64,000 nucleotides of DNA, from positions 1 to 64,000 of the forward strand of contig JAGMCR010000015.1 of the NCBI GenBank assembly GCA_023129115.1, given 5' to 3'. This DNA comes from Candidatus Iainarchaeum sp. (GTDB lineage Archaea > B1Sed10-29 > WALL01). Position numbers and translations under genes: made by a program. The notes under the pieces are model-generated. The model did no database searches. It saw only the letters and a list, made by a program, of their open reading frames with translations, and had not been told where the DNA came from. Of the stretch, positions 26,837 to 63,140 are shown piece after piece; the first letter of the stretch is position 1, and each line of letters starts with the position of its first letter.

Positions 26837-27457
26837 TTATTGGTTTTCGTCTTCTGCGCGGCTTTGCTTCCATTCCTCGACCGCGTTTCTCCACACGCGC
26901 CACTCTCGTTTGTTCTTGGCCATGGGGTACATGGTGCCGAGGTTGCCCGGCTCGCCTTTCTTGCGGAGTGCTTTGTCGATAGTGTTGAGTGCTTTTGGCT
27001 TGCCTTTTTCGTCGTAGAGCCCGACTAATTTGTTTGCCTCGTCGAGGCGCTGGAACAGTATTTCGACGCGGTCGCCGTTGAGGCGCCTCGGCGCCGGCTT
27101 TTTCTTGAGGTGGTGGCCGTAGTGGAGCTGCAGGGCTTTGCCGAGGTGCGGGTCCTGGATTAATTCCCTGAACTGGGTGTAGAGCCACGAGTCGCTTCTC
27201 TTGAACTTTTTCAGGAGCTTCCATTCGAGTGACGCCCATGTTGGACGCTTGGTGGGGTGGCTCATTTCGCTGTACAGCACGGTGCCGGCCTCGTGCGCGA
27301 TTTTCTTGACGTCGCCGATTCTGATGAGGCCCTTGTGTGCCTTGAGCTTTTTGAGCGCGGCCTTGAGCTTTTTTTCTGTGTGCCCGGCAGCTGCTTGCTT
27401 GTGGGTGCAGTACTTGCTGTTGCGCAGGCTCTTGACGCGGCCCTGTATTTTTTCCAT
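26837..27457 (-). CDS. Hypothetical basic protein (cargo)
   Basis: ATG lies about 22 nt from the GGAATAAAAA promoter repeat. Confidence 0.7.
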   Translation of the reverse strand: MEKIQGRVKSLRNSKYCTHKQAAAGHTEKKLKAALKKLKAHKGLIRIGDVKKIAHEAGTVLYSEMSHPTKRPTWASLEWKLLKKFKRSDSWLYTQFRELIQDPHLGKALQLHYGHHLKKKPAPRRLNGDRVEILFQRLDEANKLVGLYDEKGKPKALNTIDKALRKKGEPGNLGTMYPMAKNKREWRVWRNAVEEWKQSRAEDENQ

Positions 27458-27478
27458 TAGCAATAATTACACTTCCAC

Positions 27479-27493
27479 GGAATAAAAACCCTA
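27479..27493. promoter_or_regulatory. First of about 15 copies of a back-to-back TATA-like motif GGA(A)TAA(G/A)AAAC(G/C)CTTTTATCC
   Basis: Copies at 27479, 27929, 28361, 28898, 29494, 30095, 31428, 32626 (half), 33408, 35101/35138 (split), 35996, 39215, 41507, 42928, 48028; related AACGCTTTTATTC at 50285 and 52491. Start codons lie about 20-30 nt away on either side. Confidence 0.8.
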
Positions 27494-27907: not shown

Positions 27908-27941
27908 AGCCCTGCCTAATGCGCCCGTGGAATAAAAACCC

Positions 27942-28340
27942 TTACATGCAGACGCAGTCCATGCGCGTAGTCATTTCGTCGCACATGAGCGAGCCCAGGC
28001 TCTTGCCCTGGGCCTCACAGTAATTTGCGCAGGCGGCGTGGACCTCGCTTTTTTGTTCCATGGTCCCCATTTCATAGTACGAGCAGTGCTGGGGGATGTC
28101 TTCCCACGCGCGTGGCTCCGGCGTTGGCTCTGGGGTTGCTGTTGGCGTTGCGGTTGGCTCTGGCGTTGCGGTTGGGGTTGCCTCTGGCGTCGGCGTGGGG
28201 GTTGGCGTTGGCGTCGCGGCTGGCGTCGCAGCGGGAGTGGATATTATTTCGGCACCGGGCTCGCCCATTTTAGGGGTTTCCTTCACGCATCCCACGAGCA
28301 CTACCAGCACAACAACAATGAGCAGCGTGGGCCTTCTCAT
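27942..28340 (-). CDS. Lipoprotein with PT-rich linker and Cys-rich tip (cargo)
   Basis: Lipobox LVGC; TP repeats; 6 Cys at the C-terminus. Confidence 0.8.
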   Translation of the reverse strand: MRRPTLLIVVVLVVLVGCVKETPKMGEPGAEIISTPAATPAATPTPTPTPTPEATPTATPEPTATPTATPEPTPEPRAWEDIPQHCSYYEMGTMEQKSEVHAACANYCEAQGKSLGSLMCDEMTTRMDCVCM

Positions 28341-28373
28341 GCTTTTTTCAACTCGCTTGTGGAATAAAAGCCC

Positions 28374-28877: not shown

Positions 28878-28916
28878 GCAGTAATTACTGCTTTTCTGGA
28901 ATAAAAACCCTTTTAT

Positions 28917-28975
28917 CCAGCTGAAACTCAGCTGGCACGTTGTCCGTAGCCGCTTACGCGGCCAGCGGACTAACC
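28917..28975. repeat. Modular hairpin repeat copy
   Basis: CCAGCTGA-AAC-TCAGCTGG then GTTGTCCGT..GCGGACTAAC; homologous to 13925, 33429, 44270. Confidence 0.8.
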
Positions 28976-29052
28976 TTCTTTTATAGTTACGTCGAGAACC
29001 CATGGTGTGGGGGGGCCATGCTTATAAATATGTGTTTTGATAATGTGTTTGT

Positions 29053-29253
29053 ATGAAGTTTAGTGTTGTTCTTGAGAAAGAGGACAAGGGTTATTCTGTT
29101 AGTTGTCCTGCTCTTCCGGGGTGCCACTCACAAGGCGAGACGAAGAAGGGGGCGCTTAAGAACATTAAAGAGGCTATTGAGCTGTATGTGGAAACCCTTA
29201 ACACGCGGGTCAGGCCGCACGGAGCCGTGTCCGTTGCCAAAGTAATGGTTTGA
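29053..29253 (+). CDS. hicB: HicB-family antitoxin
   Basis: YSVSCPALPGCHSQGET...ALKNIKEAIELY. Confidence 0.9.
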   Translation: MKFSVVLEKEDKGYSVSCPALPGCHSQGETKKGALKNIKEAIELYVETLNTRVRPHGAVSVAKVMV

Positions 29254-29256
29254 GCC

Positions 29257-29475
29257 ATGAAGCTGCCGGTTGTTTCGGGGAGAGATGCTGTCAAAGCATT
29301 TTCTAGGGTTGGGTGGAAGCCGACCCGGCAGAGGGGGAGCCATGTTGTCCTGGAAAAAGCTGGCGAGGAAATAGTCCTGACAATCCCTCTTCACAACGAG
29401 CTAAAGAAAGGGCTGCTGCACGGCCTAATCAAAGACGCAGGCCTAAGCGTTGCGGCGTTCACACGGCTGCTATGA
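29257..29475 (+). CDS. hicA: HicA-family mRNA interferase toxin
   Basis: RQRGSHVVL...TIPLH..LKKGLL..LIKDAGL. Confidence 0.9.
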   Translation: MKLPVVSGRDAVKAFSRVGWKPTRQRGSHVVLEKAGEEIVLTIPLHNELKKGLLHGLIKDAGLSVAAFTRLL

Positions 29476-29586
29476 CGCTTGAGCCACCCACGCGGAATAA
29501 GAAACTCTTTTATCCCTCTTTAAATCTTGTAACTCCTACAAAATTACCGAAAGCTTTATATTTTGTAGCTTCTACAAAATTGGGTA

Positions 29587-29952: not shown

Positions 29953-29958
29953 GTTGCA

Positions 29959-30087: not shown

Positions 30088-30121
30088 CCACGCGGGATAA
30101 GAAACGCTTTAAATCCGTGGG

Positions 30122-31405: not shown

Positions 31406-31469
31406 TAGCCAATAATTACTCGCCCACGGAATAAAAACCCTTTTATCCTTGTTTCGCCTTAATCCGGTT

Positions 31470-32618: not shown

Positions 32619-32630
32619 GGCTCGCAAAGC

Positions 32631-32713
32631 CTTTTATCCCTCCACCGCATTACCTGTACTCGATGCCAACCTGGTCCCACTCCCGCATTTCGGCGAGTGA
32701 GTCCCTGCCCCCC
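32631..32713 (+). pseudogene. Promoter plus 5' remnant of the PD-(D/E)XK nuclease gene
   Basis: ATG 32663 reads MPTWSHSRISASES.. versus MPTWSHSRISTYENCP at 49136. Confidence 0.9.
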
Positions 32714-32736
32714 GTAATTTTGTAACTCCCACAAAA

Positions 32737-33009
32737 TTACGTTTTGTATGCCTTGTCGTGGTGCTCAAAGTCGTAGAACTTTACCAAGTCTTTTGTTTGG
32801 TCGTACTTGAACACTAACACGAAGCTTTTTTGTATGTGTACTCTTTTGAAGTCCTGGAGTGGCTTCCGCAGGTTTTTGTAACGAGTTATTTTTGGGCTAG
32901 AAACAATCTCGGCTATTTTTGCCATTACTGCCGTGTATGTCTTCCCGTCTTTTTTGTGGAGCTTTTTGAGCTTTGTTTCGAGGCGCTTTTCTATGGCAAA
33001 GTCATGCAT
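32737..33009 (-). CDS. RelE/ParE (YafQ-like) toxin
   Basis: YKNLRKPLQDFKRVHI..FVLVF...HHDKAY. Confidence 0.85.
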   Translation of the reverse strand: MHDFAIEKRLETKLKKLHKKDGKTYTAVMAKIAEIVSSPKITRYKNLRKPLQDFKRVHIQKSFVLVFKYDQTKDLVKFYDFEHHDKAYKT

Positions 33010-33247
33010 GCTCTATCTCGTCCATTAGCTTCTTGACGGACGCGTATTCCTTGAACTTCCCGGTTTTTTCGATGCCCCTAAGCTTTTTCACGAACTCAGG
33101 CCTCAACTCTTTTTCCATTATTTCGTGGCCCATTTCGTCAATAATTAGCTGGATTGCCTTGTCCTTGGACGGCAGGCTGTACACGCTTTTCACCACGCCT
33201 ACGACGCGGTCAAGGTCCTTGCTCAGGGTTACTGTGACTTGAGTCAT
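33002..33247 (-). CDS. Antitoxin (DUF2683-like)
   Basis: Small gene overlapping the toxin; ELRPEFVKKL..IE; palindrome TACTACATTTTGTAGTA upstream. Confidence 0.75.
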   Translation of the reverse strand: MTQVTVTLSKDLDRVVGVVKSVYSLPSKDKAIQLIIDEMGHEIMEKELRPEFVKKLRGIEKTGKFKEYASVKKLMDEIEHA

Positions 33248-33428
33248 TCACAACACCTACTACATTTTGTAGTAAAATGTAGTATAAATGCTTTTTGGTC
33301 CGCCTTTGCTTTCTTCATACCCAACGGCTTAAAAACGGCTTTGCATACGCCTTGCCGAGACCCTCCACGTGCCTTGGAATGGGTGACCACGGCGTGGTCA
33401 CCCACGAGAATAAGAGAACCCTTTTATC

Positions 33429-33576
33429 CAGCTTAAACTAAGCCCAGACGAGAATCCCTGCGGGGATTCACGTCATGCCCCGGCAATCCTTTGGGATTCG
33501 CCAGGTGGCACGACAATCCTTTGGGATTCGCCAGGTGGCACGTTGTCCGTGCCTCCGCAGGGCCAGCGGACTAACG
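33429..33576. repeat. Modular hairpin repeat, expanded copy
   Basis: GCTTA-AAC-TAAGC, two CAATCCTTTGGGATTCGCCAGGTGGCACG units, GTTGTCCGT..GCGGACTAAC. Confidence 0.85.
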
Positions 33577-33579
33577 CCG

Positions 33580-35079: not shown

Positions 35080-35138
35080 ACACCTAATAATTGTTGCCAC
35101 GGAATAAAAAAAGATGCCTCGATGACCCCCCACCAGTA

Positions 35139-35221
35139 ACGCTTTTATCCCTCTACCGCATTACTTGTACTCGATGCCAACCTGGTCCCGCTCCCGCGTT
35201 TCGGCGCACGAGTCCCTGCCC
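35139..35221 (+). pseudogene. Promoter plus 5' remnant of the PD-(D/E)XK nuclease gene
   Basis: ATG 35174 reads MPTWSRSRVSAHES..; upstream sequence nearly the same as the 32631 copy. Confidence 0.9.
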
Positions 35222-35954: not shown

Positions 35955-36006
35955 TCGGGCGACCACTTCCCACAGTTTTGTGGTCACCCAACGGGGGATA
36001 AGAAAC

Positions 36007-36046
36007 GCTTTTATCCCTCTCCCGCATTTCGTGCGAGTCCTGCCCT
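36007..36046 (+). pseudogene. Internally deleted 5' remnant of the nuclease gene
   Basis: CTTTTATCCCTCT joined directly to CCCGCATTTCG..GAGTCCTGCCC; consistent with deletion between the two CCGCATT direct repeats seen in the 32631 copy. Confidence 0.75.
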
Positions 36047-42929: not shown

Positions 42930-42963
42930 AAGCTTTTATCCCTCCATTTCCTATTCTTTGTTA

Positions 42964-44214: not shown

Positions 44215-44276
44215 TGCCCACTTGGTCCCACAGCAGAATCAGCATTTACGAGTCCTGCCCCCTCAACTTCAGCTGA
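44214..44276 (+). pseudogene. 5' remnant of the nuclease gene
   Basis: MPTWSHSRISIYESCPLNFS* matches the nuclease N-terminus at 16 of 20 aa with many synonymous changes. Confidence 0.92.
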
Positions 44277-44368
44277 AACTCAGCCCAGACGAGAATGCCC
44301 CGGCGTTTTCCTTTGGGAAATTCGCCAGGTACCCCGGCAATCCGTTGGGATTCGCCAGGTGGCTCGTT
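44270..44368. repeat. Modular hairpin repeat copy
   Basis: CAGCTGAAACTCAGCCCAGACGAGAAT plus two CC(T/G)TTGGGA..TTCGCCAGGT units, as at 33429. Confidence 0.85.
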
Positions 44369-44507
44369 AGACGAGGGCGGCACAAGTTTATGGGTAGATT
44401 GTGGCAGTATTGAGACACATTTGGGTTAAGCGAGAAAACAAATGTCATTCTGGATGAGCTCTAAACGGAATTGAAAGCTTAAATATTAGAAAGATTAAGA
44501 TTTATGC

Positions 44508-45472: not shown

Positions 45473-45682
45473 TTAATCCAAAATATTCTTGATGTCACTC
45501 AAACTGTTTTCCAAATCAGTGATATTCTGGGTTATGTCCTGTTCTACATCGGCAACATCTGGTTCGATTGTTGGCTCAGGTGTCGGGGTTGGCGTTGAGG
45601 CCTCTTCTGTGCCACTTATACATCCCATCATAAAAACCATGCAAATAATGGTTGAAACAGCAAATAATTTCCGCATATTCAT
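45473..45682 (-). CDS. Small lipoprotein
   Basis: MMGC lipobox; PT linker. Confidence 0.7.
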   Translation of the reverse strand: MNMRKLFAVSTIICMVFMMGCISGTEEASTPTPTPEPTIEPDVADVEQDITQNITDLENSLSDIKNILD

Positions 45683-46983: not shown

Positions 46984-47062
46984 AGAAACACCCGGGTTTA
47001 AGGGAGGGCTTTTCTGGTATTTACGGGTTTTGGTAACCATTAAATTCCCCCTCCACCTATCC

Positions 47063-47120
47063 CTATCCAATGCCTATCTGGCTCCACTCCCGCATTTCGG
47101 CGAGTGAGTCCCTGCCCCCC
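47063..47120 (+). pseudogene. 5' remnant of the nuclease gene
   Basis: CTATCCAATGCC is identical to the intact start context; reads MPIWLHSRISASES..; 3' part identical to the 32663 remnant. Confidence 0.88.
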
Positions 47121-47183
47121 TGTTTTTGATATTTAAACCCCTCCAATAACTTTAAAAAGGGTGTTTTTGTGAACCTGTTCTTA

Positions 47184-47272
47184 GTGCTCGAGGCGTTTGC
47201 GTATCGGCCCTTGGGTTTTACGCGCACGCGCTTGCGACGGCACTCGCCCGGGGCTTTGGGTCCCGGGCTTTT
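47184..47272 (+). ncRNA. Candidate small RNA convergent with a DUF3800-like gene
   Basis: TATA-like box upstream; long GUGC...GCAC hairpin; GCCCGGGGC-UUUGG-GUCCCGGGC plus UUUU ending at the stop of the opposite gene. Confidence 0.65.
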
Positions 47273-49135: not shown

Positions 49136-50284
49136 ATGCCCACCTGGAGCCATAGTAGAATCTCGACGTACGAGAATTGCCCCCTGAAATTTTATTACAC
49201 TTACGTCGAGAAGCCGGACGTGGAGGAGGTATTGGGTGACAATATCGCTCTTGTGCTGGGCAAGAGCTGTCACGAGGCGCTCGAGTGGCTGTACAAAGAG
49301 CTGTCCTTCGGCCGGGAGCCGTCCCTGGACGACGCCATCGACTATTATACCCAATCCTGGGGCAAGATGTGGACTCCGGACGTGATTATCCCCCGTTTTG
49401 ACGAAAAAACGTGGAAAAAGCTTGGCATCCGGTACCTCGGCGACTTTTACAACCGGCACTCGCCGTTTATCGAGGACCGTACCGTGGCCCTCGAGAGAAT
49501 GGTTCGCCTTAAAATCGGCAAGTACTCGTTAATCGGGTATATTGACCGTGTTGCCGAGGCTTCTCCGGGCCACTACAAAATCATTGATTACAAGACGACT
49601 AAGAGGCTTCAGGGGCAGGACTGGTTTGACAGTGACCGCCAGCTCGCTCTCTACGAAATTGGCTTGCGCCAGATGTTCAGGGACGTGGAGGAGGTGGACC
49701 TCGTGTGGCACATGCTTCACTTCAACAAGGAGATTGTTTCTCGCCGGACTCCGGGGCAGCTGGAGCAGTTGAAGAGTGACACGATTGAATTGATTAGTAC
49801 TATTGAGGCTGCTGAAGAGTATCCCGCCAAAGTGTGTGGGCTTTGCCCGTGGTGCAGCTTCCAAGAAATCTGTCCCAAAAAAAAGCACGAGCGCGCCACC
49901 ACGCGCATGACCGTCCGCGAGTTCCGCAGGGACGAGGGCGTTCGCGTGGCGAACAAGTTTGTGCAGACGAAGCTGAAGCTGGACGAGTGGGGGATAAAGA
50001 ACGCGGACGCGCGGAAGGACGTGCTGGCGTATTCGAAGCAGCACGACACCAGCAAAGTCATTGGGTCGAAGGCGGCTGTGGCCGTCTCGACGATGAAGAG
50101 GGTATCGTTCGACCCCAAAGTGGAGAAATTGTTGAAGAAAGAGGGGTTGTGGGAGAAGTACTCGAAGTTGGATTCTGCTGCTCTTGTGCGTGAGCTTGAG
50201 GGCCTTGACCCGAAAATCAGGGGAAAGCTTGTCAAGCTTGAGGAGACTAAAGAGTCTAAAGCTGTGCGTGTTGTGAAGAAGTGA
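49136..50284 (+). CDS. PD-(D/E)XK nuclease (PDDEXK_1; Cas4/AddB-like, Fe-S Cys pattern); anchor of the array
   Basis: SHSRISTYENCP, G..H, GYIDRV, IIDYKT, QLALY, CGLCPWCSFQEICP; start moved to ATG 49136. Confidence 0.92.
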   Translation: MPTWSHSRISTYENCPLKFYYTYVEKPDVEEVLGDNIALVLGKSCHEALEWLYKELSFGREPSLDDAIDYYTQSWGKMWTPDVIIPRFDEKTWKKLGIRYLGDFYNRHSPFIEDRTVALERMVRLKIGKYSLIGYIDRVAEASPGHYKIIDYKTTKRLQGQDWFDSDRQLALYEIGLRQMFRDVEEVDLVWHMLHFNKEIVSRRTPGQLEQLKSDTIELISTIEAAEEYPAKVCGLCPWCSFQEICPKKKHERATTRMTVREFRRDEGVRVANKFVQTKLKLDEWGIKNADARKDVLAYSKQHDTSKVIGSKAAVAVSTMKRVSFDPKVEKLLKKEGLWEKYSKLDSAALVRELEGLDPKIRGKLVKLEETKESKAVRVVKK

Positions 50285-50333
50285 AACGCTTTTATTCTTT
50301 GTCTTCGTTTTGTTTTGTGTGGAGTTGAGGTGA

Positions 50334-51833
50334 ATGCCTAGGAAGAAACACACGGCCGTGCGCCACCCGGACATTGAGTTGGGGGTCAAGAGGGTTACTG
50401 ACGGGAGCATCGAAAAGCTCACTGATGCGAGGGGGGAGCCTTTCACTAGGTCCGAACGCATCAAATTGATGGCGGGCGACCGCAAGGTCTTCGGGAAGGG
50501 CATTGAGGAATTGTTTGACAAGGCAATCAGGGAACTGAAAAAGATTCCTAAGGAAAAGATGGAGCGGCGGAAGCTGATTTACGAGGGCTTGCTCGGCGAG
50601 GTGGAGTCCAAGCTCAAGATTGGTGACTCCGACCGGTTTTTGGCGCACGAAATGATGGTCCAGACTGATTTGGGCAGCATGGTCAAGGCGATTGCGCAGG
50701 GGTCGGACATTAATTTGGACACTGTTGACACCCAAGCAGTGGACAAGGCGGTTGGTACCGCGAGGGACATGTATTACGGCACGAATAAGACAAAGGACGA
50801 GGCCTTGACGAAGAGCCTTGAGGTCTTGATGGCGGACGAGGGCGTCTCGAAGCAGTTCGATGGGGAGTGGGAGGTGGCCGCGCACTTGTCGCCCAAGGAC
50901 CGGGCAAGGTTTTTGATGGCTGTGATGCACAAGGACGATTACTTGATACACCAATTAATCCAGCAGAGGGACGAGAACAAGGAAATGACCAAGGACCAGC
51001 TCCAAAGCATGCTGGATAATTTTGGTTTAACTGAAAAAGATTTTTCGAAGAAAGAGTTGGAGGAGTTGGGGGTTACTATTCACATGGGCAAGAACAAAGA
51101 GATTTTGTTGGACATGGCCAAGATTCTTATCATGGCTGACCTGGACCCCCACAAGCTTTTGGAGTTGCCCAAAGAAGAGAAGCGCACTGCTGTGCTCAGC
51201 ATTTTTTCTCATGAAGCCCTTGACCCCTTGAAGGTGCTGCAGAAGCTTCCTTCTGTCGCGAGGGGCTTGGCGTTGAGGTCTCTTGAGGGCATAAGCAAAA
51301 ATGCTAAGGAGGGGGACAAGGAGGCCAAAGACATGCATAGGTCCAGCCTTATGCTGCACAGCCTTAACATACACAACCCGAGGGAGCGGGAGGCCTTGGC
51401 CGAGATTGTGGCGCTTGCTGACGATAGTGCTGAGTGGGACAAAGAGCTGTCCGCCAGCATAATCAAGAGGCATGGGCTGGAGAAAGAAGCCGAGTTCAAC
51501 AGGTACATGGTGAACCTACGGGACATTGTCGACCAGCCGGCCCACTTCAACCGCTTTTTGGAGCTGGCGTGGGACTTGGATGACAAGGACAAAGTTGGGG
51601 AGATTGGCTTTGACGCGTCGAACCCTGACCACAAAAAGGCGTTCATGAAGATTAGGGGCGAGCTCTTGAAGATAAAGCTTGGCAGTGGGGGCCTCAAGGA
51701 CAATAACGCCGAGGCCGTGGAAAAGCGGGTGCTGACGGAAATGGGCTTGCTCGAAGAAGTCACGAAAAGGCGCAAAAAGAAAGAAAAAAGCGAGAAACGC
51801 GTCAAAGAGCGGTGGAAAAACATTTACGCTTGA
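50334..51833 (+). CDS. Hypothetical helical protein (cargo)
   Basis: GAGGTGA RBS; stop overlaps the nuclease 3' remnant. Confidence 0.8.
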   Translation: MPRKKHTAVRHPDIELGVKRVTDGSIEKLTDARGEPFTRSERIKLMAGDRKVFGKGIEELFDKAIRELKKIPKEKMERRKLIYEGLLGEVESKLKIGDSDRFLAHEMMVQTDLGSMVKAIAQGSDINLDTVDTQAVDKAVGTARDMYYGTNKTKDEALTKSLEVLMADEGVSKQFDGEWEVAAHLSPKDRARFLMAVMHKDDYLIHQLIQQRDENKEMTKDQLQSMLDNFGLTEKDFSKKELEELGVTIHMGKNKEILLDMAKILIMADLDPHKLLELPKEEKRTAVLSIFSHEALDPLKVLQKLPSVARGLALRSLEGISKNAKEGDKEAKDMHRSSLMLHSLNIHNPREREALAEIVALADDSAEWDKELSASIIKRHGLEKEAEFNRYMVNLRDIVDQPAHFNRFLELAWDLDDKDKVGEIGFDASNPDHKKAFMKIRGELLKIKLGSGGLKDNNAEAVEKRVLTEMGLLEEVTKRRKKKEKSEKRVKERWKNIYA

Positions 51834-51876
51834 GGAGACTAAGGAGTCTAAAGCTGTGCGTGTTGTGAAGAAGTAG
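51828..51876 (+). pseudogene. 3' remnant 1 of the nuclease gene
   Basis: LEETKESKAVRVVKK*; 46 of 49 nt identical to the gene end (one synonymous change, TGA to TAG). Confidence 0.95.
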
Positions 51877-52401
51877 GTGATGTTAATGGCGGGTAAAAAA
51901 AAGAAAAAGGGAAAAGCTTTTCAGGCTCTGCCTGAGAAATGGGTGAAGCCGTTGAGGGAGCTTGACGTGTACAGTGCCTTGGTCAAGGTGCTGGGGTTGA
52001 CGTTGTTGGGGGTTTTCCTCTATTCCTGGTTGTGGGCACCAGACGAGAGGTGGATTGTAGTGCTGCCCCTCGCGTTCGCTTCGATTTCACTGGGTAATTT
52101 GCTCCCGATAGCCGTTGGCAATTTGTTGGGGAACAAGTGGGGGAAGAAAGCGCCGTGGCAGGGCTTCGCTGTTTTAGTGACTGCGTATTCGGTGGTGTGG
52201 TCCGTGGTTGTGTGGCTCTTTAGCCGGTTGAACGCCGGTTTAATCGCGACTGTTTTGGGCCTAATCCTGTTCTACTCCATCTTCCAGTCTTATTACCAGA
52301 CGAGCCACAAGCACGCGGTATACGCGGCACTCTTGTTTGGCCTGCTATTGCCGGCTTTGGTGCTCGGGATGCTGATGGGCATGATAGGGGCGTTGCCGTA
52401 A
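51877..52401 (+). CDS. Membrane protein, paralogue of 25466-25981
   Basis: Shared motifs; about 5 TM segments. Confidence 0.8.
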   Translation: MMLMAGKKKKKGKAFQALPEKWVKPLRELDVYSALVKVLGLTLLGVFLYSWLWAPDERWIVVLPLAFASISLGNLLPIAVGNLLGNKWGKKAPWQGFAVLVTAYSVVWSVVVWLFSRLNAGLIATVLGLILFYSIFQSYYQTSHKHAVYAALLFGLLLPALVLGMLMGMIGALP

Positions 52402-52403
52402 CC

Positions 52404-52504
52404 CGGGAACTTGTGGGCTGTAATCCGGGGCTGAAGAAGAAGCTTGAGGAAACAAAAGAGTCTTTGTCTGTGCGTGTTGTGAGGAAGTGAAACGCTTTTA
52501 TTCT
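52404..52504 (+). pseudogene. 3' remnant 2 of the nuclease gene plus downstream promoter
   Basis: RELVGCNPGLKKKLEETKESLSVRVVRK* followed by AACGCTTTTATTCT, as after the intact gene. Confidence 0.92.
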
Positions 52505-52526
52505 GCTGCCTGCTTATCCATTAGTG

Positions 52527-53255
52527 ATGGCAGTGAGTAAGTTTGATTGGAGTTCAGTGGATTTGGAGGGCCCGGAGGCAGTGGGCCGCATTGCTGAGAA
52601 CGTTTCGTTAAGGGAAATTGACAAGCACTTGGAGGCGGGCAACGAGGCGCTTAGGAATAGTGAGGGTGCTGGCGTCCAGGCCGTGTTGGCGGCGGCTTTC
52701 GGTGGCGTGGACGAGGTGAATGCCGCCAATCTCCCGAAGGCGGTGGAGGGTGTTGCTGAGGGCCGGGCTAAGCTGAAGAGGATTATGGGTGTTCTTTCCG
52801 AGGCCAGGGAGAGGCGGGAGGAAGTGGTGGCAAGCGATGCGCGGAGGTATGCGCGCGAGAACGACTTGTTCAGTGTCCACAAGAAGCTGAACAGTGTTGA
52901 GGAAGCGCTTTTGGGCACGCGTGGGGGCCAGGCCGCTGATGCGGAGGTCATCCAGCGGAGTAATATGCACAGGGTTTTCATGCAGCGGCTTGCCGAAGAA
53001 AAAGCGGTGCCTGTTGCTGGTGGAGTGGCTCTTGCTCGCCTGAGGGAGATGGATGCGGCGCTTGAGAGGGACGTCAAGCGCTTTCGGAGGGGTCGGCTGG
53101 ACAAGGCGTTGGAGCGTGCGGCCGGGTTCCAGGGCCTTGTGCGGCAGCGCATCGAGCTCACTGAGAAGGCTTCGGTGCTCAAGTCCCCCAAACGCTCCAC
53201 GGGGAAGAAGCGCGGGTTCGTAATGGCGCAGCCAAAAGAAAAGCCAAGAAAGTAA
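52527..53255 (+). CDS. Hypothetical protein (cargo)
   Basis: ATG about 25 nt after TTTTATT; stop overlaps remnant 3. Confidence 0.75.
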   Translation: MAVSKFDWSSVDLEGPEAVGRIAENVSLREIDKHLEAGNEALRNSEGAGVQAVLAAAFGGVDEVNAANLPKAVEGVAEGRAKLKRIMGVLSEARERREEVVASDARRYARENDLFSVHKKLNSVEEALLGTRGGQAADAEVIQRSNMHRVFMQRLAEEKAVPVAGGVALARLREMDAALERDVKRFRRGRLDKALERAAGFQGLVRQRIELTEKASVLKSPKRSTGKKRGFVMAQPKEKPRK

Positions 53256-53280
53256 GGCTGTTAGGGTGGTTAAGAAATAA
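53248..53280 (+). pseudogene. 3' remnant 3 of the nuclease gene
   Basis: ESKAVRVVKK* with mostly synonymous codon swaps. Confidence 0.85.
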
Positions 53281-53301
53281 ACTTCTTTCTAGTGACTAAC
53301 T

Positions 53302-53895
53302 TTACAAAAGAAAAAGCTCGCGGAATGTGAACGATAAATCCATCATCAAAAAATAGAAGTAATACTGCAGTACAGTATGATACAATTTTTTACGTTTGTT
53401 TGTCCCTCTCACCTTCTTAATTTTTGCGAACATCTTTTTCAAAGAGGGGTTAGGAATCTTTTCTAGATCTTCCATAGTATAGTCTAATCTGTGGGCGTAT
53501 TGGTTTCTAAGATAATTCACGAACTTAAGCTCCCGATAGAGCTCATTATCCAGAATACCCAAAGCGGAAATTATCTCTAGCTTTAGGTAATACCTTTCAT
53601 CTAGTAGCCTTTTTGGGTTTTTTAATCTTTTAGTTATGATTGCATCTAAAAAACGTTCAAAATACAGGTGCATAACCAAAACTAGATGCAACGTGTTTTG
53701 TATCTCTAAAACATCTTTAAAAAATTTCCTTCCCAAAACCCTAGTCTTTTTTGGAAGACGAGAACGAATAATATCCTGCGTGGCCTCACTAGTTAGTATA
53801 AACTTTTTTGTCCAAGGCATATCTGTCTCGATAGTCCTAGCCATCGCCTTTAATATGCCTAGTGACCTATCTGGGACAGGGTACCATTTTGTCAT
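53302..53895 (-). CDS. MtlR/HEPN-like protein
   Basis: HLYFE..L, ALGIL, LRNQYAH (RxxxxH); low GC. Confidence 0.6.
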   Translation of the reverse strand: MTKWYPVPDRSLGILKAMARTIETDMPWTKKFILTSEATQDIIRSRLPKKTRVLGRKFFKDVLEIQNTLHLVLVMHLYFERFLDAIITKRLKNPKRLLDERYYLKLEIISALGILDNELYRELKFVNYLRNQYAHRLDYTMEDLEKIPNPSLKKMFAKIKKVRGTNKRKKLYHTVLQYYFYFLMMDLSFTFRELFLL

Positions 53896-53938
53896 AATTT
53901 GTTAATTCATATTGGCTATAAAAGGTTTTTGCCAAGAA

Positions 53939-54217
53939 CTAGCTCTTGGCTTTCATCCTCGCCCTAACCACCTTCTTCAGCGGCTCGACCCCATAGTCAT
54001 AGATATCGGGGATGTCCAGGTTCACGACTTTGCCATAGAACCGGAAGAAATGCTCCATTATGTACGTCTCGTGCTTTTTCTCGAACACGTACACCTTGTC
54101 GGCCCACTTCAGCGCCGCGTCCGTTAAGTCGTACATGCCGCAGTACTTGCCGCCGTACATCTCGGCCGCCGTGCGGCTCCGGTTCTCGCCGGCCGTGCAG
54201 ACGAAGAGGAGGTTCAT
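53939..54217 (-). CDS. Low-molecular-weight phosphotyrosine phosphatase-like protein
   Basis: LLFVCTAGENRSRTA (CX5R); WAD; LDIPD. Confidence 0.85.
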   Translation of the reverse strand: MNLLFVCTAGENRSRTAAEMYGGKYCGMYDLTDAALKWADKVYVFEKKHETYIMEHFFRFYGKVVNLDIPDIYDYGVEPLKKVVRARMKAKS

Positions 54218-54819
54218 TTTTTCCTCTGGGACAGGGTAAATTTTACATAGTTGTATTCATCTATAACTTTAGCTAGTGGTGTTTGTTTACTCCGCCATAG
54301 CACGCCACCAAACTCCTCTTGCATTTCTTTGAGAAATCCCAAGTAATCATTTGCTGTGGGTTGTGATTTTTTTATTCCATAGTGTCGCCTGATATTGGTG
54401 TCCCACATTACGAAGAGGGCGGGGTTGAATATACTCATAACTTTGGAAGAGCCAGTGTATTTTACTCCCGGAACCTTGGAAAGCTCTGCATAAATCTTCT
54501 TGATATCGGAGCCCAAACCATCATTCTCATCGAGGTTAGCTGTTTGTAATGTTTCTTTTTTGAGTTTCTTGAAAATAGGAAGACATGTCTTGATAGCATT
54601 TTCGAGTTGACCGAGAGTCTCTTTTTCAGAAGAGAGGTAATGGAACCGCGCTTTATTCCATGTGGCAAGTATCACTATGGCTGCTTGTAGGGGATAGTCC
54701 TCAACTGCCTCACAGGCAACGCAGTAAAAATTGACTCGTCCTTCTCTCTTAGTAAATTTTTTGTGGGCACTTTTTAAGGAACCGCTAGTGTGTGGCATAG
54801 CCATCCAATACACGTCCAA
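54214..54819 (-). CDS. Hypothetical protein with an HhH-glycosylase-like motif
   Basis: LSKVPGVKYTGSSKVM..FNP.LFVMWD. Confidence 0.55.
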   Translation of the reverse strand: MDVYWMAMPHTSGSLKSAHKKFTKREGRVNFYCVACEAVEDYPLQAAIVILATWNKARFHYLSSEKETLGQLENAIKTCLPIFKKLKKETLQTANLDENDGLGSDIKKIYAELSKVPGVKYTGSSKVMSIFNPALFVMWDTNIRRHYGIKKSQPTANDYLGFLKEMQEEFGGVLWRSKQTPLAKVIDEYNYVKFTLSQRKK

Positions 54820-54860
54820 AACACTTAAATATAGCCCCGGGGTAGTTGATATCCACCTAG

Positions 54861-54977
54861 CTAAACGCGGGGGCGTTGGCGAGGGAGCTTGATGGGCTTG
54901 ACGAGGGGCTGAGGAAGAAGCTGGAAAAACTTGAGGAGACTAAGGAGAGTAAGGCTGTTAGGGTGGTTAGAAAATGA
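54861..54977 (+). pseudogene. 3' remnant 4 of the nuclease gene
   Basis: LNAGALARELDGLDEGLRKKLEKLEETKESKAVRVVRK* versus LDSAALVRELEGLDPKIRGKLVKLEETKESKAVRVVKK*; ATGA overlap with the RM gene. Confidence 0.95.
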
Positions 54978-57900
54978 CTGAGAAAGAACAACTGGCCGGG
55001 GAGCCCTTATTTAACAAGTTAGTTGTTGAATTTCAATTGCGGAGTTTTGATAGACCTCTACATTCCTTTGGAAAAGAGCAAAAAACTGAATATGAATTAT
55101 TTAAATCGACGGTTCTTGATGATTTGCCAGAAGTTCTGATGGGAGATATTGGGAAAGAGAACCCAACCGTCATAGCCCAGTATCTGTCTGGGACAGAGGA
55201 GAATGTTAAGAATAAAGTGATAGAACCTTTACTATGCCAGTTTTTAGGGTTTAAGAAAAAACAATTTCAGTATGAACCTGCAGTTAGAATGGAAGATGGA
55301 ACAGGCCATATAGATATCGTAATCAACGTAGATCCAAAATACAAGATATTAGTAGAAACAAAGAGTTGGAGGACTGATCTCAATAAACGGGTGGGAAAAT
55401 ACAAGAAAAGTGCCATCGTCCAAGCATTTGAGTATGCTGAAGCACACGGGATCAATTGGGTAGTTGTGACAAATGGCTATGAACTGCGGCTATATAATCG
55501 TAAAGAAGGTAGTACAAAATATGAGAAGTTCCTTTTAGATGATCTAAACAACCCTCTGGCAGTTGGTAGAACATCGGCTTTCCATCCTAAGAGAGTTTAT
55601 ACCCTATTATCCAATGAGTCTTTTGTTAGCCGAATCCAAGATAAGATATTGGAGCAAAGTGAGGAACACCTAAATGATTTAGGGGAATACATCTATGAAG
55701 TGATAAAGGAACTACGGAATGAATTGGCTAATAACATACTCCGTAAAGACAAACAAATAATCCAGAGGTATATGGAATCTTCAGGACTAACTGAAAAGCA
55801 GAGTAATCAGCTTGTTTTGGATATAATACAAACGTTCATAGATAGATTAATCTTCATTCGCTTTGCAGAGGGCAGGGGGCTTCTACCTGAACCCTATGAC
55901 GCAAACTTTACAGCTCACTTAAAGGAGCTCTGGCAGACAGCAAGAGCGGATATACCAGATTTAACGTTTTTTGATTACCTAAGAAAACTATTTAGAAAGA
56001 TTGATGAAGGCAACTTCAAAGACCCAAACCGGCGATTCTTTGGCTATAATGGTGGACTTTTTGCCCCTAACACCATTCTAGACAATCCCCACTTCCAGAT
56101 AGACGACCACGTAGTTTGGGATGTCATATTGAGATTAAATAAATATGCGCCGAAAAAAAAGACAAAAAAGATTAAACATTTGATGTTAGAAAAAAATGAG
56201 AAGATCAACTTCTCTGAAGTTCCAGTGGAGGTTCTTGGACATATTTATGAAAAGTACTTAGGTCTATCCATTGACCTAGATTGGAAGAGTATCCACCCCA
56301 AAGTCATAATCGACGAGACTAAAGAAAAAAGAAAGGAAGCTGGAGTGTATTACACGCCCAAACATATCACAGAGTACATAGTTAAAAATACTGTTGGAAG
56401 CTTTTTGAAAGAAAATCTAGATAGGTTAGATAACATAAACGTGGTCGATCCAGCTTGTGGTTCTGGGACCTTTTTGCTAAGCGCTTACGAATATTTGTTT
56501 GATAACCAGATTGAAACAACCGCTCTTTCAGATAAGTCACTTAAAAGTTACGTTGTCAGAATCAAAAAACTAATCAAGATACTCAGTCAAAGAGATACCG
56601 CCATCAAAGACAAGGAAAAACTTGCGGAAAAGGTTGGCCTTTCTTTGTTCGAAATAAACAATACTATCCAAGACCTGCTCGGAAAGAACATTCTTCTTAT
56701 AAGCCCAGACGGGTATTATCGACTATCCCCCAAAATGTATGATAAAGAGATGATAAACGAGGACTTACTAACGCAGTATTTGAAAAGTAAGTTACGTTTC
56801 CTTGCTTTAGATATGGTTACAAACAAAAAAAAGGTGCACATAAACGAACATATACTGAAAACTAATCTTCATGGGGTGGATCTCCAATCTCGTGCTGTTG
56901 AAATAACAAAACTGAGCTTATGGCTTAAAACGGCGATCAAGAACGCAAAACTCATAAATCTTGGCACGCAGATTCTAGAAGGTAACTCTCTGATAACGGG
57001 TGTTGAAGGCCCAGAGGAACTGAAGCAGTTCAAAACGGAACTAAATGAAATAATTAAATTAGAAGAACATCTTGAAAGCTTAGATGAAACAAAAGAGTCT
57101 CACCAAAAAATACGCAAACTAGTCAATGAAATAAAATCTGATAAGAAAGAACTTGTTGAGTTATTGGATAAAAACCTTGTTAAAGAGGATGACGAAGGTT
57201 ATTTTGACAATATAAAAAACATAAAACCGTTTGACTGGGAAGTTGAGTTTCCGACCGTATTTGATGATGGGAATAATCCCGGATTTGATGTTGTTATTGG
57301 TAACCCACCATATAGCGCTAAGTTGTCTAAAGCGGAAAGAGGCTATATACGGGATACTTACCCCGCAACAAAAGGAAACACGGATACAGCTATAGCATTT
57401 ATCAACCATGCGTATACCTTATTAAAAAAAGGTGGTTATCTCGGTTTTATTGTGCCAAAATCGCTTTTGTACAGTGATACGTGGGTGGCATGTCGAGAGT
57501 TTATTTTACCGGATCTAGTGAAACTGGTCGATGTTAGCAAGGCTTTTGAGGGTGTCCGGCTTGAACAAGTTATTATAATCCTAAAGAAAGGCAGTGCTTC
57601 AAAGACTTACGCAATTGAATTTTTGGGTTCCACAAAACATCACGAAATAAAAAAGAGCAACTTGAAGAAATTCGGTATAATCCTTAATGAGATTGGACAA
57701 GACGAATTAAAACTCGGCCTGAATCTTTCGGGTAAAGCTAGACTCTCTGACGTTGCTGATTTAGAACGCGGACTGGGCCTACAAGATGAGCTCTCTCAGA
57801 CAGGATCTAAACGGATTTATGGTGGTTCCAGTGTTGGGAGATTCTTACTAAAACCTACGGATAGGTTCATAAGCAGCACTACCTACGCAAAACATGCGAA

Positions 57901-58387
57901 TAAACTACGTGTACAAGAAACTCCTAAGGTTATAATGCAGAACATCGTTGCCCACGTAACCAAACCGAAGGACCACTTGCTGTTTATCTCAACATTTGAT
58001 TATGAGGGGATCTTAACTTTAGATACGGTTGTGAACATCAGTCCCAAAGCGGATTTCGACCCGTTTGTTTTAGTGGGAATACTCAATTCTAAACTATTTT
58101 CTTGGTATGCGTACCGATTCATTTACGCCAAAGCAATAAGAAATATGCATTTTGACAAATGCCATCTGAATAAATCGCCTTTGTGTAAGCTCCCAATCAA
58201 CAAAAGAGTTTATAACCGATTGAGATCTTTGGTTGATGAATGCTGCACTATAGGGAAAAATGGTCAAATCCCCAAAAATCTTGAAGAAGAATGGTCTACA
58301 AAAGAAAAGGAAATAAACGAATTAGTTTATGAGGCGTATGGGCTTGGTAGAGAGGACAGCAAAATTATAGAGCGTAGTTTCCGTTAA
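54974..58387 (+). CDS. Type IIG (Eco57I-like) restriction-modification fusion enzyme
   Basis: N-terminal D..ETK..Q...Y..TNG nuclease; YNGGLF, LGHIYE, GVYYTP, DPACGSG, IGNPPY; TaqI-like C-terminus GILNS. Confidence 0.92.
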   Translation: MTEKEQLAGEPLFNKLVVEFQLRSFDRPLHSFGKEQKTEYELFKSTVLDDLPEVLMGDIGKENPTVIAQYLSGTEENVKNKVIEPLLCQFLGFKKKQFQYEPAVRMEDGTGHIDIVINVDPKYKILVETKSWRTDLNKRVGKYKKSAIVQAFEYAEAHGINWVVVTNGYELRLYNRKEGSTKYEKFLLDDLNNPLAVGRTSAFHPKRVYTLLSNESFVSRIQDKILEQSEEHLNDLGEYIYEVIKELRNELANNILRKDKQIIQRYMESSGLTEKQSNQLVLDIIQTFIDRLIFIRFAEGRGLLPEPYDANFTAHLKELWQTARADIPDLTFFDYLRKLFRKIDEGNFKDPNRRFFGYNGGLFAPNTILDNPHFQIDDHVVWDVILRLNKYAPKKKTKKIKHLMLEKNEKINFSEVPVEVLGHIYEKYLGLSIDLDWKSIHPKVIIDETKEKRKEAGVYYTPKHITEYIVKNTVGSFLKENLDRLDNINVVDPACGSGTFLLSAYEYLFDNQIETTALSDKSLKSYVVRIKKLIKILSQRDTAIKDKEKLAEKVGLSLFEINNTIQDLLGKNILLISPDGYYRLSPKMYDKEMINEDLLTQYLKSKLRFLALDMVTNKKKVHINEHILKTNLHGVDLQSRAVEITKLSLWLKTAIKNAKLINLGTQILEGNSLITGVEGPEELKQFKTELNEIIKLEEHLESLDETKESHQKIRKLVNEIKSDKKELVELLDKNLVKEDDEGYFDNIKNIKPFDWEVEFPTVFDDGNNPGFDVVIGNPPYSAKLSKAERGYIRDTYPATKGNTDTAIAFINHAYTLLKKGGYLGFIVPKSLLYSDTWVACREFILPDLVKLVDVSKAFEGVRLEQVIIILKKGSASKTYAIEFLGSTKHHEIKKSNLKKFGIILNEIGQDELKLGLNLSGKARLSDVADLERGLGLQDELSQTGSKRIYGGSSVGRFLLKPTDRFISSTTYAKHANKLRVQETPKVIMQNIVAHVTKPKDHLLFISTFDYEGILTLDTVVNISPKADFDPFVLVGILNSKLFSWYAYRFIYAKAIRNMHFDKCHLNKSPLCKLPINKRVYNRLRSLVDECCTIGKNGQIPKNLEEEWSTKEKEINELVYEAYGLGREDSKIIERSFR

Positions 58388-63139: not shown

Positions 63140-63140
63140 A

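Follow-up and report, generated by a model that had tools for sequence, protein, structure and literature searches.

The window analysed here is a 64,000-nt stretch of one contig (C7) of a small archaeal genome of 1.25 Mb (G000), which was compared with two further genomes of the same genus, G001 and G002, the latter a single-cell genome (SAG) assembled independently of G000. The window carries an intact gene for a Cas4-like nuclease, hereafter the anchor, which scores 44.2 bits against the TIGR00372 cas4 profile, under its cut-off of 65, and which has a homologue of 81% identity in G002 (C6:22923-24068). The anchor belongs to an island of approximately 45 kb (~28.4-73.07 kb of the contig) bordered by conserved genes on one side and by the 3' end of an rRNA operon on the other (Table 1). 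The island reaches 73.07 kb and therefore lies partly outside the window, and the span of 27450-58387 given in the preliminary description is too small. Its cassettes measure 0.2-8 kb, many of them with their own promoter, and the cargo occupies both strands; downstream of the anchor (50305-64000) the G+C content drops to 37-42%. No integrase or transposase domain was detected when 38 ORFs selected from the 26-73 kb interval were searched against Pfam (E up to 0.01 or 0.001).

Table 1. Features of the island in G000 (positions on contig C7)
Feature	Position	Strand	Remarks
Upstream cargo	28400-49135	both	HicAB-like pair (named by eye), YafQ/RelE-like toxin with DUF2683, TPR proteins, TrmB/wHTH proteins, DUF6036/AbiEii-like nucleotidyltransferase, Pro/Thr-rich secreted proteins, many family-less proteins
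Promoter motif cut just past TATA-like part, then REP (28917-28977), then nuclease codons 19-27 (28976-28998)	28898-28998	+	
Promoter motif, leader and 5' piece	32626-32713	+	ATG 32663, ~51 nt; repeat family D7; joined to a hairpin and a convergent YafQ/RelE-like toxin gene with DUF2683 partner
Promoter motif joined to REP-like variant with 30-nt hairpin modules	33408-33575	+	repeat families D8, D9
Promoter motif, leader and 5' piece	35136-35221	+	ATG 35174, 48 nt
Promoter motif directly fused to start-less 5' fragment (36021-36045)	36002-36045	+	repeat family D5
5' piece	44214-44269	+	56 nt
REP-like hairpin element (variant), after 44214 piece	44270-44375	+	repeat family D9
Second promoter type, leader and 5' piece	47038-47120	+	ATG 47070, 51 nt
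Intact anchor gene, Cas4-like PD-(D/E)XK nuclease	49136-50284	+	382 aa, C-terminal extension; PF12705 E 5.4e-29
Promoter motif beginning inside anchor stop codon	50283-50304	+	heads cargo gene 50334-51833
Downstream cargo	50305-64000		unknown proteins, MmeI-like type IIG enzyme (54974-58387), UDG-like protein, OLD-family ATPase/TOPRIM protein
3' piece (LEETKESKAVRVVKK, stop)	51828-51876	+	46/47 nt equal to anchor end
3' piece (52395-52490) and promoter motif also found after anchor	52395-52510	+	~34 aa, ends in stop
3' piece (ESKAVRVVKK, stop)	53248-53280	+	90% identical to 54945 copy; repeat family D11
3' piece	54861-54977	+	38 aa; stop overlaps ATG of type IIG restriction-modification gene
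rRNA-trailer pieces, five	67240, 68542, 69599, 70437, 71947		15-36 nt; true copy at 73075

All the remnants of the nuclease gene listed in the preliminary description, five from the 5' end and four from the 3' end, were found at the positions named there, and the rest of the 1.25-Mb genome contains none. In six-frame searches of G000, all five matches to the motif M[PS][TPI]W[SL][HR]S (four pieces and the anchor) and all five to [KL][AS]VRVV[KR]K followed by a stop fall on the + strand of C7. All 9 pieces in G000 and all 8 in G002 have the correct orientation and sidedness; no 5' piece lies downstream and no 3' piece upstream, as reported, with the nuance that the internal bit of codons 19-27 stands after a REP element (described below), and these 23 nt match the piece at 10227 of G002 (compared by eye). 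The earlier figure of about 15 promoter-like motif copies was roughly right, the repeat listing for 27-59 kb containing 12, all on the + strand. The strict form of the motif, AAANNCTTTTATCC, is island-specific, with seven of seven genome-wide matches inside the island, all on the + strand, while the looser form [AG]AAANNCTTTTAT has 12 of its 22 genome-wide matches there, 11 of those on the + strand.

Compared with the present anchor, the 5' pieces of G000 are identical at only 21-26 of 36 nt, and few pieces equal the present sequence. Pairwise comparison of the codons of 5' pieces gave 357 synonymous versus 210 non-synonymous differences, the synonymous ones occurring throughout, and the allele types are common to G000 and G002; hence the pieces stem from once-functional alleles. 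The copy at 35136-35221 is 91% identical over 80 nt to that at 32631, and the pieces at 36021 and 47070 have their outer joint in common, the adjoining 155 nt being 95% identical (second copy 47117-47271). The ATG of the 44214 piece abuts the stop of a cargo gene (42958-44214), and a REP-like element is joined to this piece at +56, the same joint as at 14136 and 19001 in G002. On the downstream side, the allele of the 52395 piece is nearer to the anchor end of G002 than to that of G000. Throughout the island the ends of the pieces are variable, from -27 to +84.

A third remnant array, missed by the preliminary description, consists of pieces of the rRNA operon trailer. The notion of an island built around the nuclease alone is contradicted by this array and by small REP insertions with duplicated gene or tRNA ends across the genome; the role that we assign to the nuclease gene is that of a favoured (hot) insertion target only.

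REP is a 60-nt two-hairpin repeat, both stems of which covary (21 copies). It is restricted to the genus, with 47, 32 and 6 copies in its three genomes and none in the 58 other archaeal genomes searched. The outer joint is the 5' end of REP in 6 of the 13 5' pieces and in 6 of the 7 trailer pieces, but in none of the four 3' pieces; this end is joined to the pieces at variable positions (+19, +30, +41 and, three times, +56) and also to promoter-only stumps. About half of the outer joints thus coincide with this fixed end; 11 of 24 pieces, including all four 3' pieces, have no REP there, so that REP cannot be a requirement.

In 15 of 35 REP copies the 12 nt that immediately precede the element recur downstream on the same strand, as against 2, 2, 0 and 0 of 35 in controls shifted by 60-400 nt. 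These flanking repeats are mostly 13-21 nt long for small elements, and the cargo-bearing elements span 1.2-3.5 kb. Some of the 15 repeat-flanked copies stand in tandem, with a portion of REP itself inside the repeat (C9:44360, C1:39043, C7:67276), and these are not simple target duplications. Two sites of G000 have empty counterparts: G002 and G001 carry a single copy and no REP at the site corresponding to C19:13132 (16-nt repeat), as does G002 at that corresponding to C19:64320, where the repeat (50 nt identical, ~90 nt in all) covers a gene 3' end including its stop. An empty site could in principle reflect precise loss, and the pattern of 50 identical and 40 diverged nucleotides at C19:64320 fits allele recombination as well as duplication. 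REP is mobile in the genus, duplicating 13-50+ nt of target at tRNA ends and gene ends genome-wide.

As the preliminary description had anticipated, the same gene is surrounded by different cargo in a relative. The anchor of G002 has eight 5' pieces upstream, all on the + strand, and the two islands (62 and 42 ORFs compared) share only the nuclease and a type IIG enzyme of 26% identity; the full pattern is present in only these two genomes. Whole-genome searches for integrase (PF00589) found none in G002 and, in G000, only that of a tRNA-Thr array on C12; the approximately 20 island cassettes of G000 gave no match. The tRNA-Thr array is integrase-made, and its four displaced pieces all end at one point to within a single base, in contrast to the variable piece lengths of the island. 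Only one of its four elements retains the integrase, and the sequence beside each displaced piece starts with a CAGCT-type hairpin or REP.

Our analysis reveals a small archaeal genome in which foreign genes were repeatedly added beside both ends of a nuclease gene and the end of an rRNA operon, each addition leaving a short copy of the end. DNA was inserted repeatedly at three fixed anchor ends (nuclease start, nuclease end and rRNA trailer), and each insertion left two copies of the anchor's last 15-115 nt, of which the inner keeps the anchor whole and the outer is displaced outward with the older cargo. At approximately half of the joints the inserted DNA starts with the fixed 5' end of REP, and REP also generates duplications of this kind at other gene ends and at tRNA ends across the genome. 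We give an even chance to the reading that the island arose by a series of insertions at favoured gene ends, with long target duplication and often REP-linked, a kind of event described for bacterial restriction-modification units. Repair of a break close to or at the gene end might draw on a foreign segment, REP-headed or not, the end thereby being copied on both sides; only insertions leaving the anchor intact and short repeats would survive, and later homologous exchange among co-occurring strains could swap anchor alleles and shuffle cassettes. Plain target duplication does need such later swaps to account for how seldom a piece equals the present anchor. Neither G000 nor G002 yielded a Pfam match to Y1/Y2 transposases, Rep_trans, Rep_1, Cas1 or resolvase, nor did RVT_1 match in the three genomes of the genus; Y2_Tnp and Rep_1 were silent in control genomes too, and those two negatives therefore say little.

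The observations of the preliminary description are confirmed with corrections, and its interpretation is supported in part: the pieces are scars of repeated additions beside the anchor, but homology-facilitated illegitimate recombination (HFIR) is judged a less likely mechanism than the insertion reading above. The present analysis adds the larger island, the trailer array, REP at the joints, REP mobility with target duplication and empty sites, and the contrast with the tRNA-Thr array. Under HFIR, which we consider unlikely, linear DNA of a relative would pair with the nuclease gene via one homologous stretch, its far end being joined illegitimately just inside the resident gene end. The island without integrase, the variable joint positions, the four 3' and seven 5' pieces without REP, and the nature of the pieces as diverged functional alleles of types common across species all agree with this model. 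It was put forward likewise in Vibrio to explain displaced ends of effector genes and arrays of orphan immunity genes, with displacement of Rhs C-termini cited as a further case (PMC5361080), and in the form outlined in that paper it does not predict a duplication of recipient sequence. The products found here do duplicate it (46/47 nt at 51828; 26-36 nt at the trailer). HFIR in its classic form is known for the deletion of recipient DNA next to the joint. Moreover, the joint would have to lie within the paired region, microhomology at REP joints is merely 1-3 nt, half of the joints share one fixed, non-random sequence end, and 60-nt REP insertions without a homologous arm leave the same signature.

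Rather improbable, in our judgement, is a Campbell-type integration of small circular cassettes by host homologous recombination, each cassette carrying its own short anchor-end copy (promoter and start, or end and downstream motif, often beside REP), entering by a single crossover in 35-150 nt of homology and able to exit between two pieces. It predicts exactly the topology and polarity observed. Joints would move with their cassettes, as the recurrent +56 REP joint (44214 in G000, 14136 and 19001 in G002) and the joint with its neighbouring 155 nt shared by the pieces at 36021 and 47070 suggest, and the C19:64320 repeat resembles a crossover between alleles. A low-depth contig of run X2 also links 51843 to 50252 via a shared 31-mer, as a circle or tandem copy would; with a depth of 3 and a path through a 31-mer repeat of the k-mer graph, this contig may be artefactual. 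The first joint of piece and REP would still require an illegitimate event, 60-nt REPs with repeats of 13-17 nt are too small and too poorly matched, and no free circles were seen.

Classical site-specific integrative elements, with integrase genes lost or acting in trans and attachment sites copying the nuclease-gene ends and the rRNA trailer, are very unlikely to account for the island. As the Islander work sets out, islands of this class are recognised by a displaced fragment of the target next to the restored target, and the tRNA-Thr array, with its one retained integrase, shows that they exist in G000, likewise with a CAGCT-type hairpin or REP beside each displaced piece. However, the piece ends of the island scatter where the boundary at tRNA-Thr is constant within one base, no conserved DNA core is present, the 5' pieces differing at synonymous positions throughout, and the three anchors are unrelated in sequence; PF00589 had no match in G002 or in the approximately 20 G000 cassettes, and resolvase had none in either genome. 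A chimeric contig, joined from several strains via short repeats, is an extremely improbable explanation: contigs of the likely source run do break at repeats of 31-155 nt (36076/36138, 44301-18, 47113-47241, 50253-81, 51845-73), so that the segment order across them is without independent support, but depth is even (17-21) over most of 36-56 kb, with 3 of the 30 bins, which hold repeats, higher, four joints lie within single contigs (44214, 52440, 53248, 54861; a 15.4-kb contig holds all of the last three), and the independent single-cell assembly has the same architecture.

Integrons grow beside a fixed point as polar arrays of small cassettes, many of whose borders carry structured repeats. 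The likeness to them drawn in the preliminary description is valid for the picture of a growing polar array, with small cassettes and structured repeats at many cassette borders, and fails for the parts: the island has no IntI, its cargo lies on both strands, many cassettes have their own promoter, and REP, unlike attC, occurs genome-wide, is absent from many borders and does not have the attC layout. As a short, high-copy, structured and mostly intergenic repeat with filled and empty sites, REP resembles MITE/REP-type non-autonomous repeats. It differs from MITEs in target duplications that are long and variable (13-50+ nt) instead of short and fixed, in that no terminal inverted repeats were seen by eye and no transposase was found (Pfam), and in that some copies head kilobases of cargo.

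As in the Vibrio T6SS orphan immunity arrays and the Rhs loci cited with them, in the account given in PMC5361080, a conserved gene serves as homology anchor without a recombinase, and old gene ends and their neighbours are moved outward. In those arrays the displaced ends are variable toxin tips with immunity genes, on one side only, whereas in the island conserved ends are displaced on both sides of the anchor, together with cargo unrelated to it, and recipient sequence is duplicated. The tandem islands made by integrases, in the features that Islander/TIGER describes, also share with our island that an insert restores the target, the old end moves outward and reuse of the site gives a tandem array; the island differs from them in the lack of an integrase and of a conserved core, in variable fragment boundaries, in its 0.2-8 kb cassettes and in targets at both ends of a protein gene.

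Bacterial restriction-modification units inserted with long target duplication, 'with no other mobile elements', were described in PMC2853133 (2010), where the authors suggest a double-strand break as a candidate mechanism and no archaeal restriction-modification system is reported to have passed the repeat-flank screen. The island shares with these units insertion free of integrase and transposase, direct repeats made of tens of nucleotides of target that often overlap a gene 3' end, and restriction-modification genes among the cargo. The cases in PMC2853133 are, as presented there, single events in bacteria, whereas the island represents serial events at the same ends, which have built polar arrays flanking one gene on either side and a further array at an rRNA operon, with inserts often headed by a defined hairpin repeat and with repeats as short as 13 nt.

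The intact Cas4-like nuclease gene that serves as anchor is accompanied by displaced copies of its own ends in a strictly sided manner, with all 5' pieces upstream of it and all 3' pieces downstream. A tblastn search with the nuclease protein against the whole source genome placed the short matches on the plus strand of contig C7 only, and the six-frame search returned five of five matches on the same contig and strand both for the motif of the first seven residues (four pieces and the anchor) and for that of the last eight residues plus stop. The remnants thus cluster around the gene on the sides expected in the preliminary description, whose integrase-free, two-sided accretion array proved right: the pieces are sided and none of the 38 ORFs scanned between 26 and 73 kb carries an integrase or transposase domain. 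Serial insertion took place beside fixed ends, the end being present on both sides, and the finding is real and unusual. A blastn candidate for a further 3' piece (C5:49115-49137) was rejected as the end of a different gene followed by the common promoter.

The anchor product belongs to the PD-(D/E)XK superfamily (PF12705); it scored 44.2 bits against the CRISPR Cas4 model TIGR00372, under the cut-off of 65, and no Cas1 was matched in the source genome or in the single-cell genome of the same genus, G002. Proteins of this family, about 400 aa long, occur widely among archaea with identities of 35-40%; 192 of them were retrieved at E up to 1e-10. Sequence search of PDB with the nuclease gave no match, and phage records contained distant RecB-like exonucleases only. 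An identical nuclease protein was present on two contigs; the longer measures 519,437 nt and seems to represent a much longer assembly of the organism. Nothing links the activity of the nuclease to the arrays.

The pieces share neither a common boundary nor a conserved DNA core; their boundaries are scattered from -27 to +84, and the 3' pieces measure 33 to 117 nt. When the opening 36 nt of the 5' pieces were compared, most differences fell at synonymous positions, with 357 synonymous versus 210 non-synonymous pairwise codon differences (14 sequences, the pairs being non-independent), which indicates that the pieces derive from alleles that were once functional. Certain pieces of the source genome are nearer to G002 sequences than to their own anchor, hence alleles move between lineages. 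Among the 5' pieces no age gradient was found when looked for; identity of the 3' pieces drops with distance (98%, 89%, 66-68%).

The left flank of the cargo island (window 14.4-28.3 kb) is syntenic with contig C16 of G002, and its right flank (C7 73074-74155) shows 92% identity to the 23S end of the same genome, so that the island spans approximately 28.4-73.07 kb. The window is the first 64,000 bases of contig C7 (74,155 nt), in an archaeal genome of 1.25 Mb on 19 contigs; its G+C content is 57-63% left of 28 kb, 47-57% at 28-54 kb and 37-42% at 54-64 kb. The stretch 36-56 kb is covered by contigs from the likely source run, in most bins at a depth of 17-21, and no variant letters occur in the listed pieces. 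These contigs break at repeats of 31-155 nt, and four joints lie inside single contigs. Support for the segment order across these repeats comes from the original assembler and the parallel in G002. Read run X2 represents the same strain at low depth with no second strain, and X3 contains it as a small share only. One 266-nt contig of X2 (depth 3) joins 51726-51843 to 50252-50399 via a shared 31-mer; a circle, a tandem copy and a graph artefact are all candidate origins, and it was given no evidential use.

Coordinates of the nuclease gene, displaced pieces, repeats and cargo (window positions equal positions on C7 of the source genome, G000)
Feature	Location	Strand	Remarks
Nuclease gene (anchor)	window 49136-50284	+	382 aa; PF12705, E 5.4e-29, 102 bits against a cut-off of 22
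N-terminal matches (tblastn)	window 32663, 35174, 44214	+	
C-terminal matches (tblastn)	window 51805, 52395, 54861	+	
Extra pieces from direct reading of DNA	window 47070, 36021-45, 53248		36021-45 is a start-less fragment
5' pieces in G002	7360, 10038, 10227, 11465, 14136, 18247, 19001, 21230	+	n=8, all upstream of the nuclease
rRNA-trailer pieces	C7 67240, 68542, 69599, 70437, 71947		cut to 15-36 nt
rRNA-trailer pieces in G002	21644, 35432		
MmeI-like type IIG restriction-modification gene	window 54974-58387	+	Eco57I, N6_Mtase, MmeI_N, TaqI_C domains
HicB/HicA-like pair (by eye)	window 29053-29475	+	no NCBIfam family match
YafQ/RelE-like toxin and DUF2683 partner	window 32737-33247	-	TIGR00053, E 4e-17, under cut-off
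Secreted-looking proteins with long Thr/Pro/Ala repeats	window 45679-47070, 27942-28340	-	
OLD-family ATPase/TOPRIM protein	C7:60031-61887	-	
HTH and DUF559/Vsr-like endonuclease	C7:72088-73062	+	last cassette ahead of the rRNA operon
Archaeal RNase P RNA	window 14051-14318	-	Rfam, 107 bits; REP 65 nt off its 3' side
REP examples	window 13924-13986; C19:13065-13132; C19:64317-64381; C4:6965-7031		
30-nt hairpin modules, AATCC...GGGATT type, tandem	window 33455-33542, 44309-44366		part of longer REP variants
tRNA-Thr displaced copies	C12 77538, 83599, 90336, 92839		array C12:74872-92839, locus L031
Nuclease fragments in G031	C26:27223-27357, 29354-29416	-	two 5' pieces in tandem, 2 kb apart
Nuclease 3' part in G031	C27:778-1392		
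Nuclease copy in G019	C7:28412-29413		lacks first 59 residues; separate start C11:32-109 running off contig end

The ATG of the type IIG restriction-modification gene shares bases with the stop codon at the end of the outermost 3' piece, as if the gene had formerly been in an operon with a nuclease allele. The DNA repeats of the Thr/Pro/Ala proteins reached very high depth in all three read runs (bin 46005-46671), most likely originating from other organisms. PHROGs and PADLOC searches returned nothing naming the cargo or a mobility function. The promoter-like motif of the preliminary description is real: in its strict form, AAANNCTTTTATCC, all seven genome matches (7/7) fall inside the island on the plus strand, and the looser form, [AG]AAANNCTTTTAT, has 12 of its 22 genome matches there, 11 of those 12 on the plus strand. 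By our own reading it lies about 27 nt upstream of the ATG in several pieces and several plus-strand cargo genes and therefore looks like a strong archaeal promoter over-used in the island, which we take to be of BRE/TATA type.

Recombinase families were searched in Pfam as well. The integrase family PF00589 had no match in island ORFs or in G002, its sole match in the source genome lying on C12 at a tRNA-Thr array; Y1_Tnp, Rep_trans, Cas1 and Resolvase (PF00239) gave none in either genome, and RVT_1 none in the three genomes of the genus. Y2_Tnp and Rep_1 were likewise silent in both genomes, and in the control genomes too. These results stand for no match in genomes 84-89% complete and are not proof of absence.

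Besides the arrays at the two nuclease ends, a third was found towards the rRNA operon, made up of displaced pieces of the rRNA trailer, the 36 nt just beyond the 23S 3' flank (true copy at C7:73075). One of the two trailer copies of G002, that at 21644, is found upstream of the nuclease; a cassette is therefore not strictly bound to one anchor. The proposal of an array built around the nuclease is not established.

A nuclease match was obtained in 6 of 41 relatives' genomes, a close copy only in G002 (81% identity, C6:22923-24068); within the class (31 genomes) close homologues occur in the source genome and G002 only, and the nuclease proteins of closer relatives show 63%, 62% and 52% identity. 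Contig C6 of G002 also carries archaeal 23S and 16S rRNA (Rfam), and no 3' pieces were seen in this genome. At the DNA level the contigs of the two genomes share the nuclease, short repeats and the rRNA flank only. At the protein level, the 62 and 42 island ORFs share the nuclease, a type IIG enzyme at 26% identity, which in G002 directly follows the nuclease on the opposite strand, and one small domain; the cargo thus differs between genomes, as anticipated. By these sequence comparisons, the nuclease is the single conserved gene within the island. Our search for further genomes retrieved one 1.28-kb contig from metagenomes and, as species genomes, only G002 and an unrelated bacterium. In the distant genome G031 the nuclease is fragmented, whereas the G035 homologue is clean and without pieces, which hints that the gene start may be rearrangement-prone elsewhere too, a suggestive observation at most.

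Directly after many pieces lies REP, a repeat of 60 nt with two hairpins whose stems both covary across 21 copies. The covariance model detected 47 copies in the source genome, 32 in G002 and 6 in G001, the third genome of the genus, whereas a search of 58 other archaeal genomes gave none; Rfam returned no family for REP, its matches being RNase P, rRNA and one tRNA only. In both islands every copy is on the plus strand, despite cargo on both strands. The 5' end of REP is fixed, and the preceding piece stops at +19, +30, +41 or +56 (three times); other copies are preceded by a promoter stump only. REP forms the outer joint with its 5' end at 6 of 13 5' pieces and at none of the four 3' pieces (0/4); in the trailer array it does so at 6 of 7 pieces, a truncated REP being present at one of them. 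Of the seven REP-free 5' pieces, five end 1-26 nt from where a convergent cargo gene has its 3' end, by our own reading. The AATCC...GGGATT-type modules are present also on C2, C4, C5 and C17.

REP is mobile, with target duplication. For 15 of 35 copies with an intact 5' part, the 12 nt just upstream are found again on that strand no more than 12 kb downstream, against 2, 2, 0 and 0 of 35 in controls shifted by 60, 120, 200 and 400 nt; three of these 15 repeat-flanked REPs are tandem copies in which the repeat contains part of REP. REP frequently adjoins tRNA genes and RNase P RNA, with target repeats of 13-50 nt; small REP elements (61-294 nt) are flanked by repeats of 13-21 nt with outliers of 35-50 nt, and in several of them the repeat takes in the final 13-17 nt of a tRNA gene. 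Two REP insertions on C19, which are not island cassettes, could be compared with an empty site: at C19:13132 REP lies between 16-nt repeats and the sequence is single-copy without REP in G002 and G001, and at C19:64320 a repeat identical over 50 nt, about 90 nt overall, spans a gene 3' end and stop and is single-copy without REP in G002. The outer copy at C19:64320 translates to a slightly different C-terminus (by eye), and this site is a small-scale version of the nuclease pattern. The mobile hairpin repeat leaves the same scar as the island insertions. Longer REP-headed segments, 1.2-3.5 kb in size and with repeats measuring 18-60 nt, compose the trailer array and a portion of the upstream one, and inserts of 1.2-3.5 kb with flanking repeats of 21-60 nt occur in the island and on C12.

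The better-supported reading, to which we give about an even chance, is a REP-linked insertion that duplicates the end it targets. A break near a gene end would be repaired with copying of that end, the insert often being REP-headed; surviving insertions would be those leaving the anchor whole, and long repeats would be lost again through recombination, which may explain the piece maximum of about 115 nt. Homology-facilitated illegitimate recombination, the mechanism favoured in the preliminary description, combines a homologous anchor with an illegitimate distal joint, where microhomology of a few bases is seen and recipient DNA beside the joint is lost. The homologous anchor is plausible, microhomology at REP joints amounts to 1-3 nt (own reading), and recipient sequence is duplicated here, not lost. 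This mechanism, proposed for Vibrio effector/immunity arrays (PMC5361080), is a live rival that is not established. Campbell-type entry of circles through short homology is a live rival as well, and two genomes do not separate either of them from end-duplicating insertion.

Rather unlikely, in our estimate, is the farther-reaching proposal that REP heads an undescribed archaeal insertion system in which an as yet unrecognised structure-specific enzyme opens gene ends and joins REP-headed DNA to them, copying the end and thereby sparing the target gene; that enzyme could conceivably be the Cas4-like nuclease with a partner, or a host or virus factor. If true, such a system would build, at favoured ends, integrase-free, integron-like cassette arrays through which a reduced genome of symbiont size stocks genes for defence and the cell surface. 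The locus presents some 20 long-target-duplication events side by side in two genomes, together with a same-scar repeat with filled and empty sites, which makes the mechanism testable (ends used, copy length, insert head). The locus also illustrates how an archaeal genome of very small size, in which the families searched include one recognisable recombinase at most, can still stock toxin-antitoxin, restriction and surface genes. For annotation, caution is advisable, since short start or stop fragments and orphan promoters of this kind are scars, not genes.

Among the papers listed in a literature search, none described REP or arrays of both-end remnants. Integrons differ by their IntI tyrosine recombinase gene next to the array, of which the scanned island ORFs gave no match, and their attC site ends every cassette and is restricted to arrays, whereas REP is genome-wide (47 copies) and absent at 11 of 24 piece joints. 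SCC-type accretion, which occurs at the 3' end of a conserved gene, involves a short direct repeat of fixed type and a serine recombinase, Ccr; neither genome has a PF00239 match and the 3' pieces vary in length. Casposons have a Cas1-type integrase and duplicate 14-15 bp of target where a tRNA or another gene ends at its 3' side; no Cas1 was matched here, though several small REPs do occupy the 3' ends of tRNAs and have 13-17-nt repeats. Integrase tandem islands share the displaced target fragment and the restored target, and the C12 array is a classical example and an in-genome control for the integrase model: behind the tRNA-Thr gene (C12:74872-74945) come four displaced copies of its final 15-16 nt, whose cut points agree to within one base, with one tyrosine integrase among four elements (L031:4360-5529; PF00589, E 5e-24) and cargo of subtilase, carotenoid-type enzymes and an AAA ATPase. 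Its outermost piece adjoins REP and the remaining three adjoin CAGCT-type hairpins. In contrast to this single boundary, the island has scattered ones and no integrase in the scanned ORFs. For insertions with long target duplication the mechanism is described as unexplained, with a double-strand break suggested, and no archaeal case survived the screen of that work (PMC2853133). With these insertions the island shares the lack of a mobility gene in the scanned ORFs and the flanking repeats, and the two REP insertions on C19 share the single-copy empty site in a relative.
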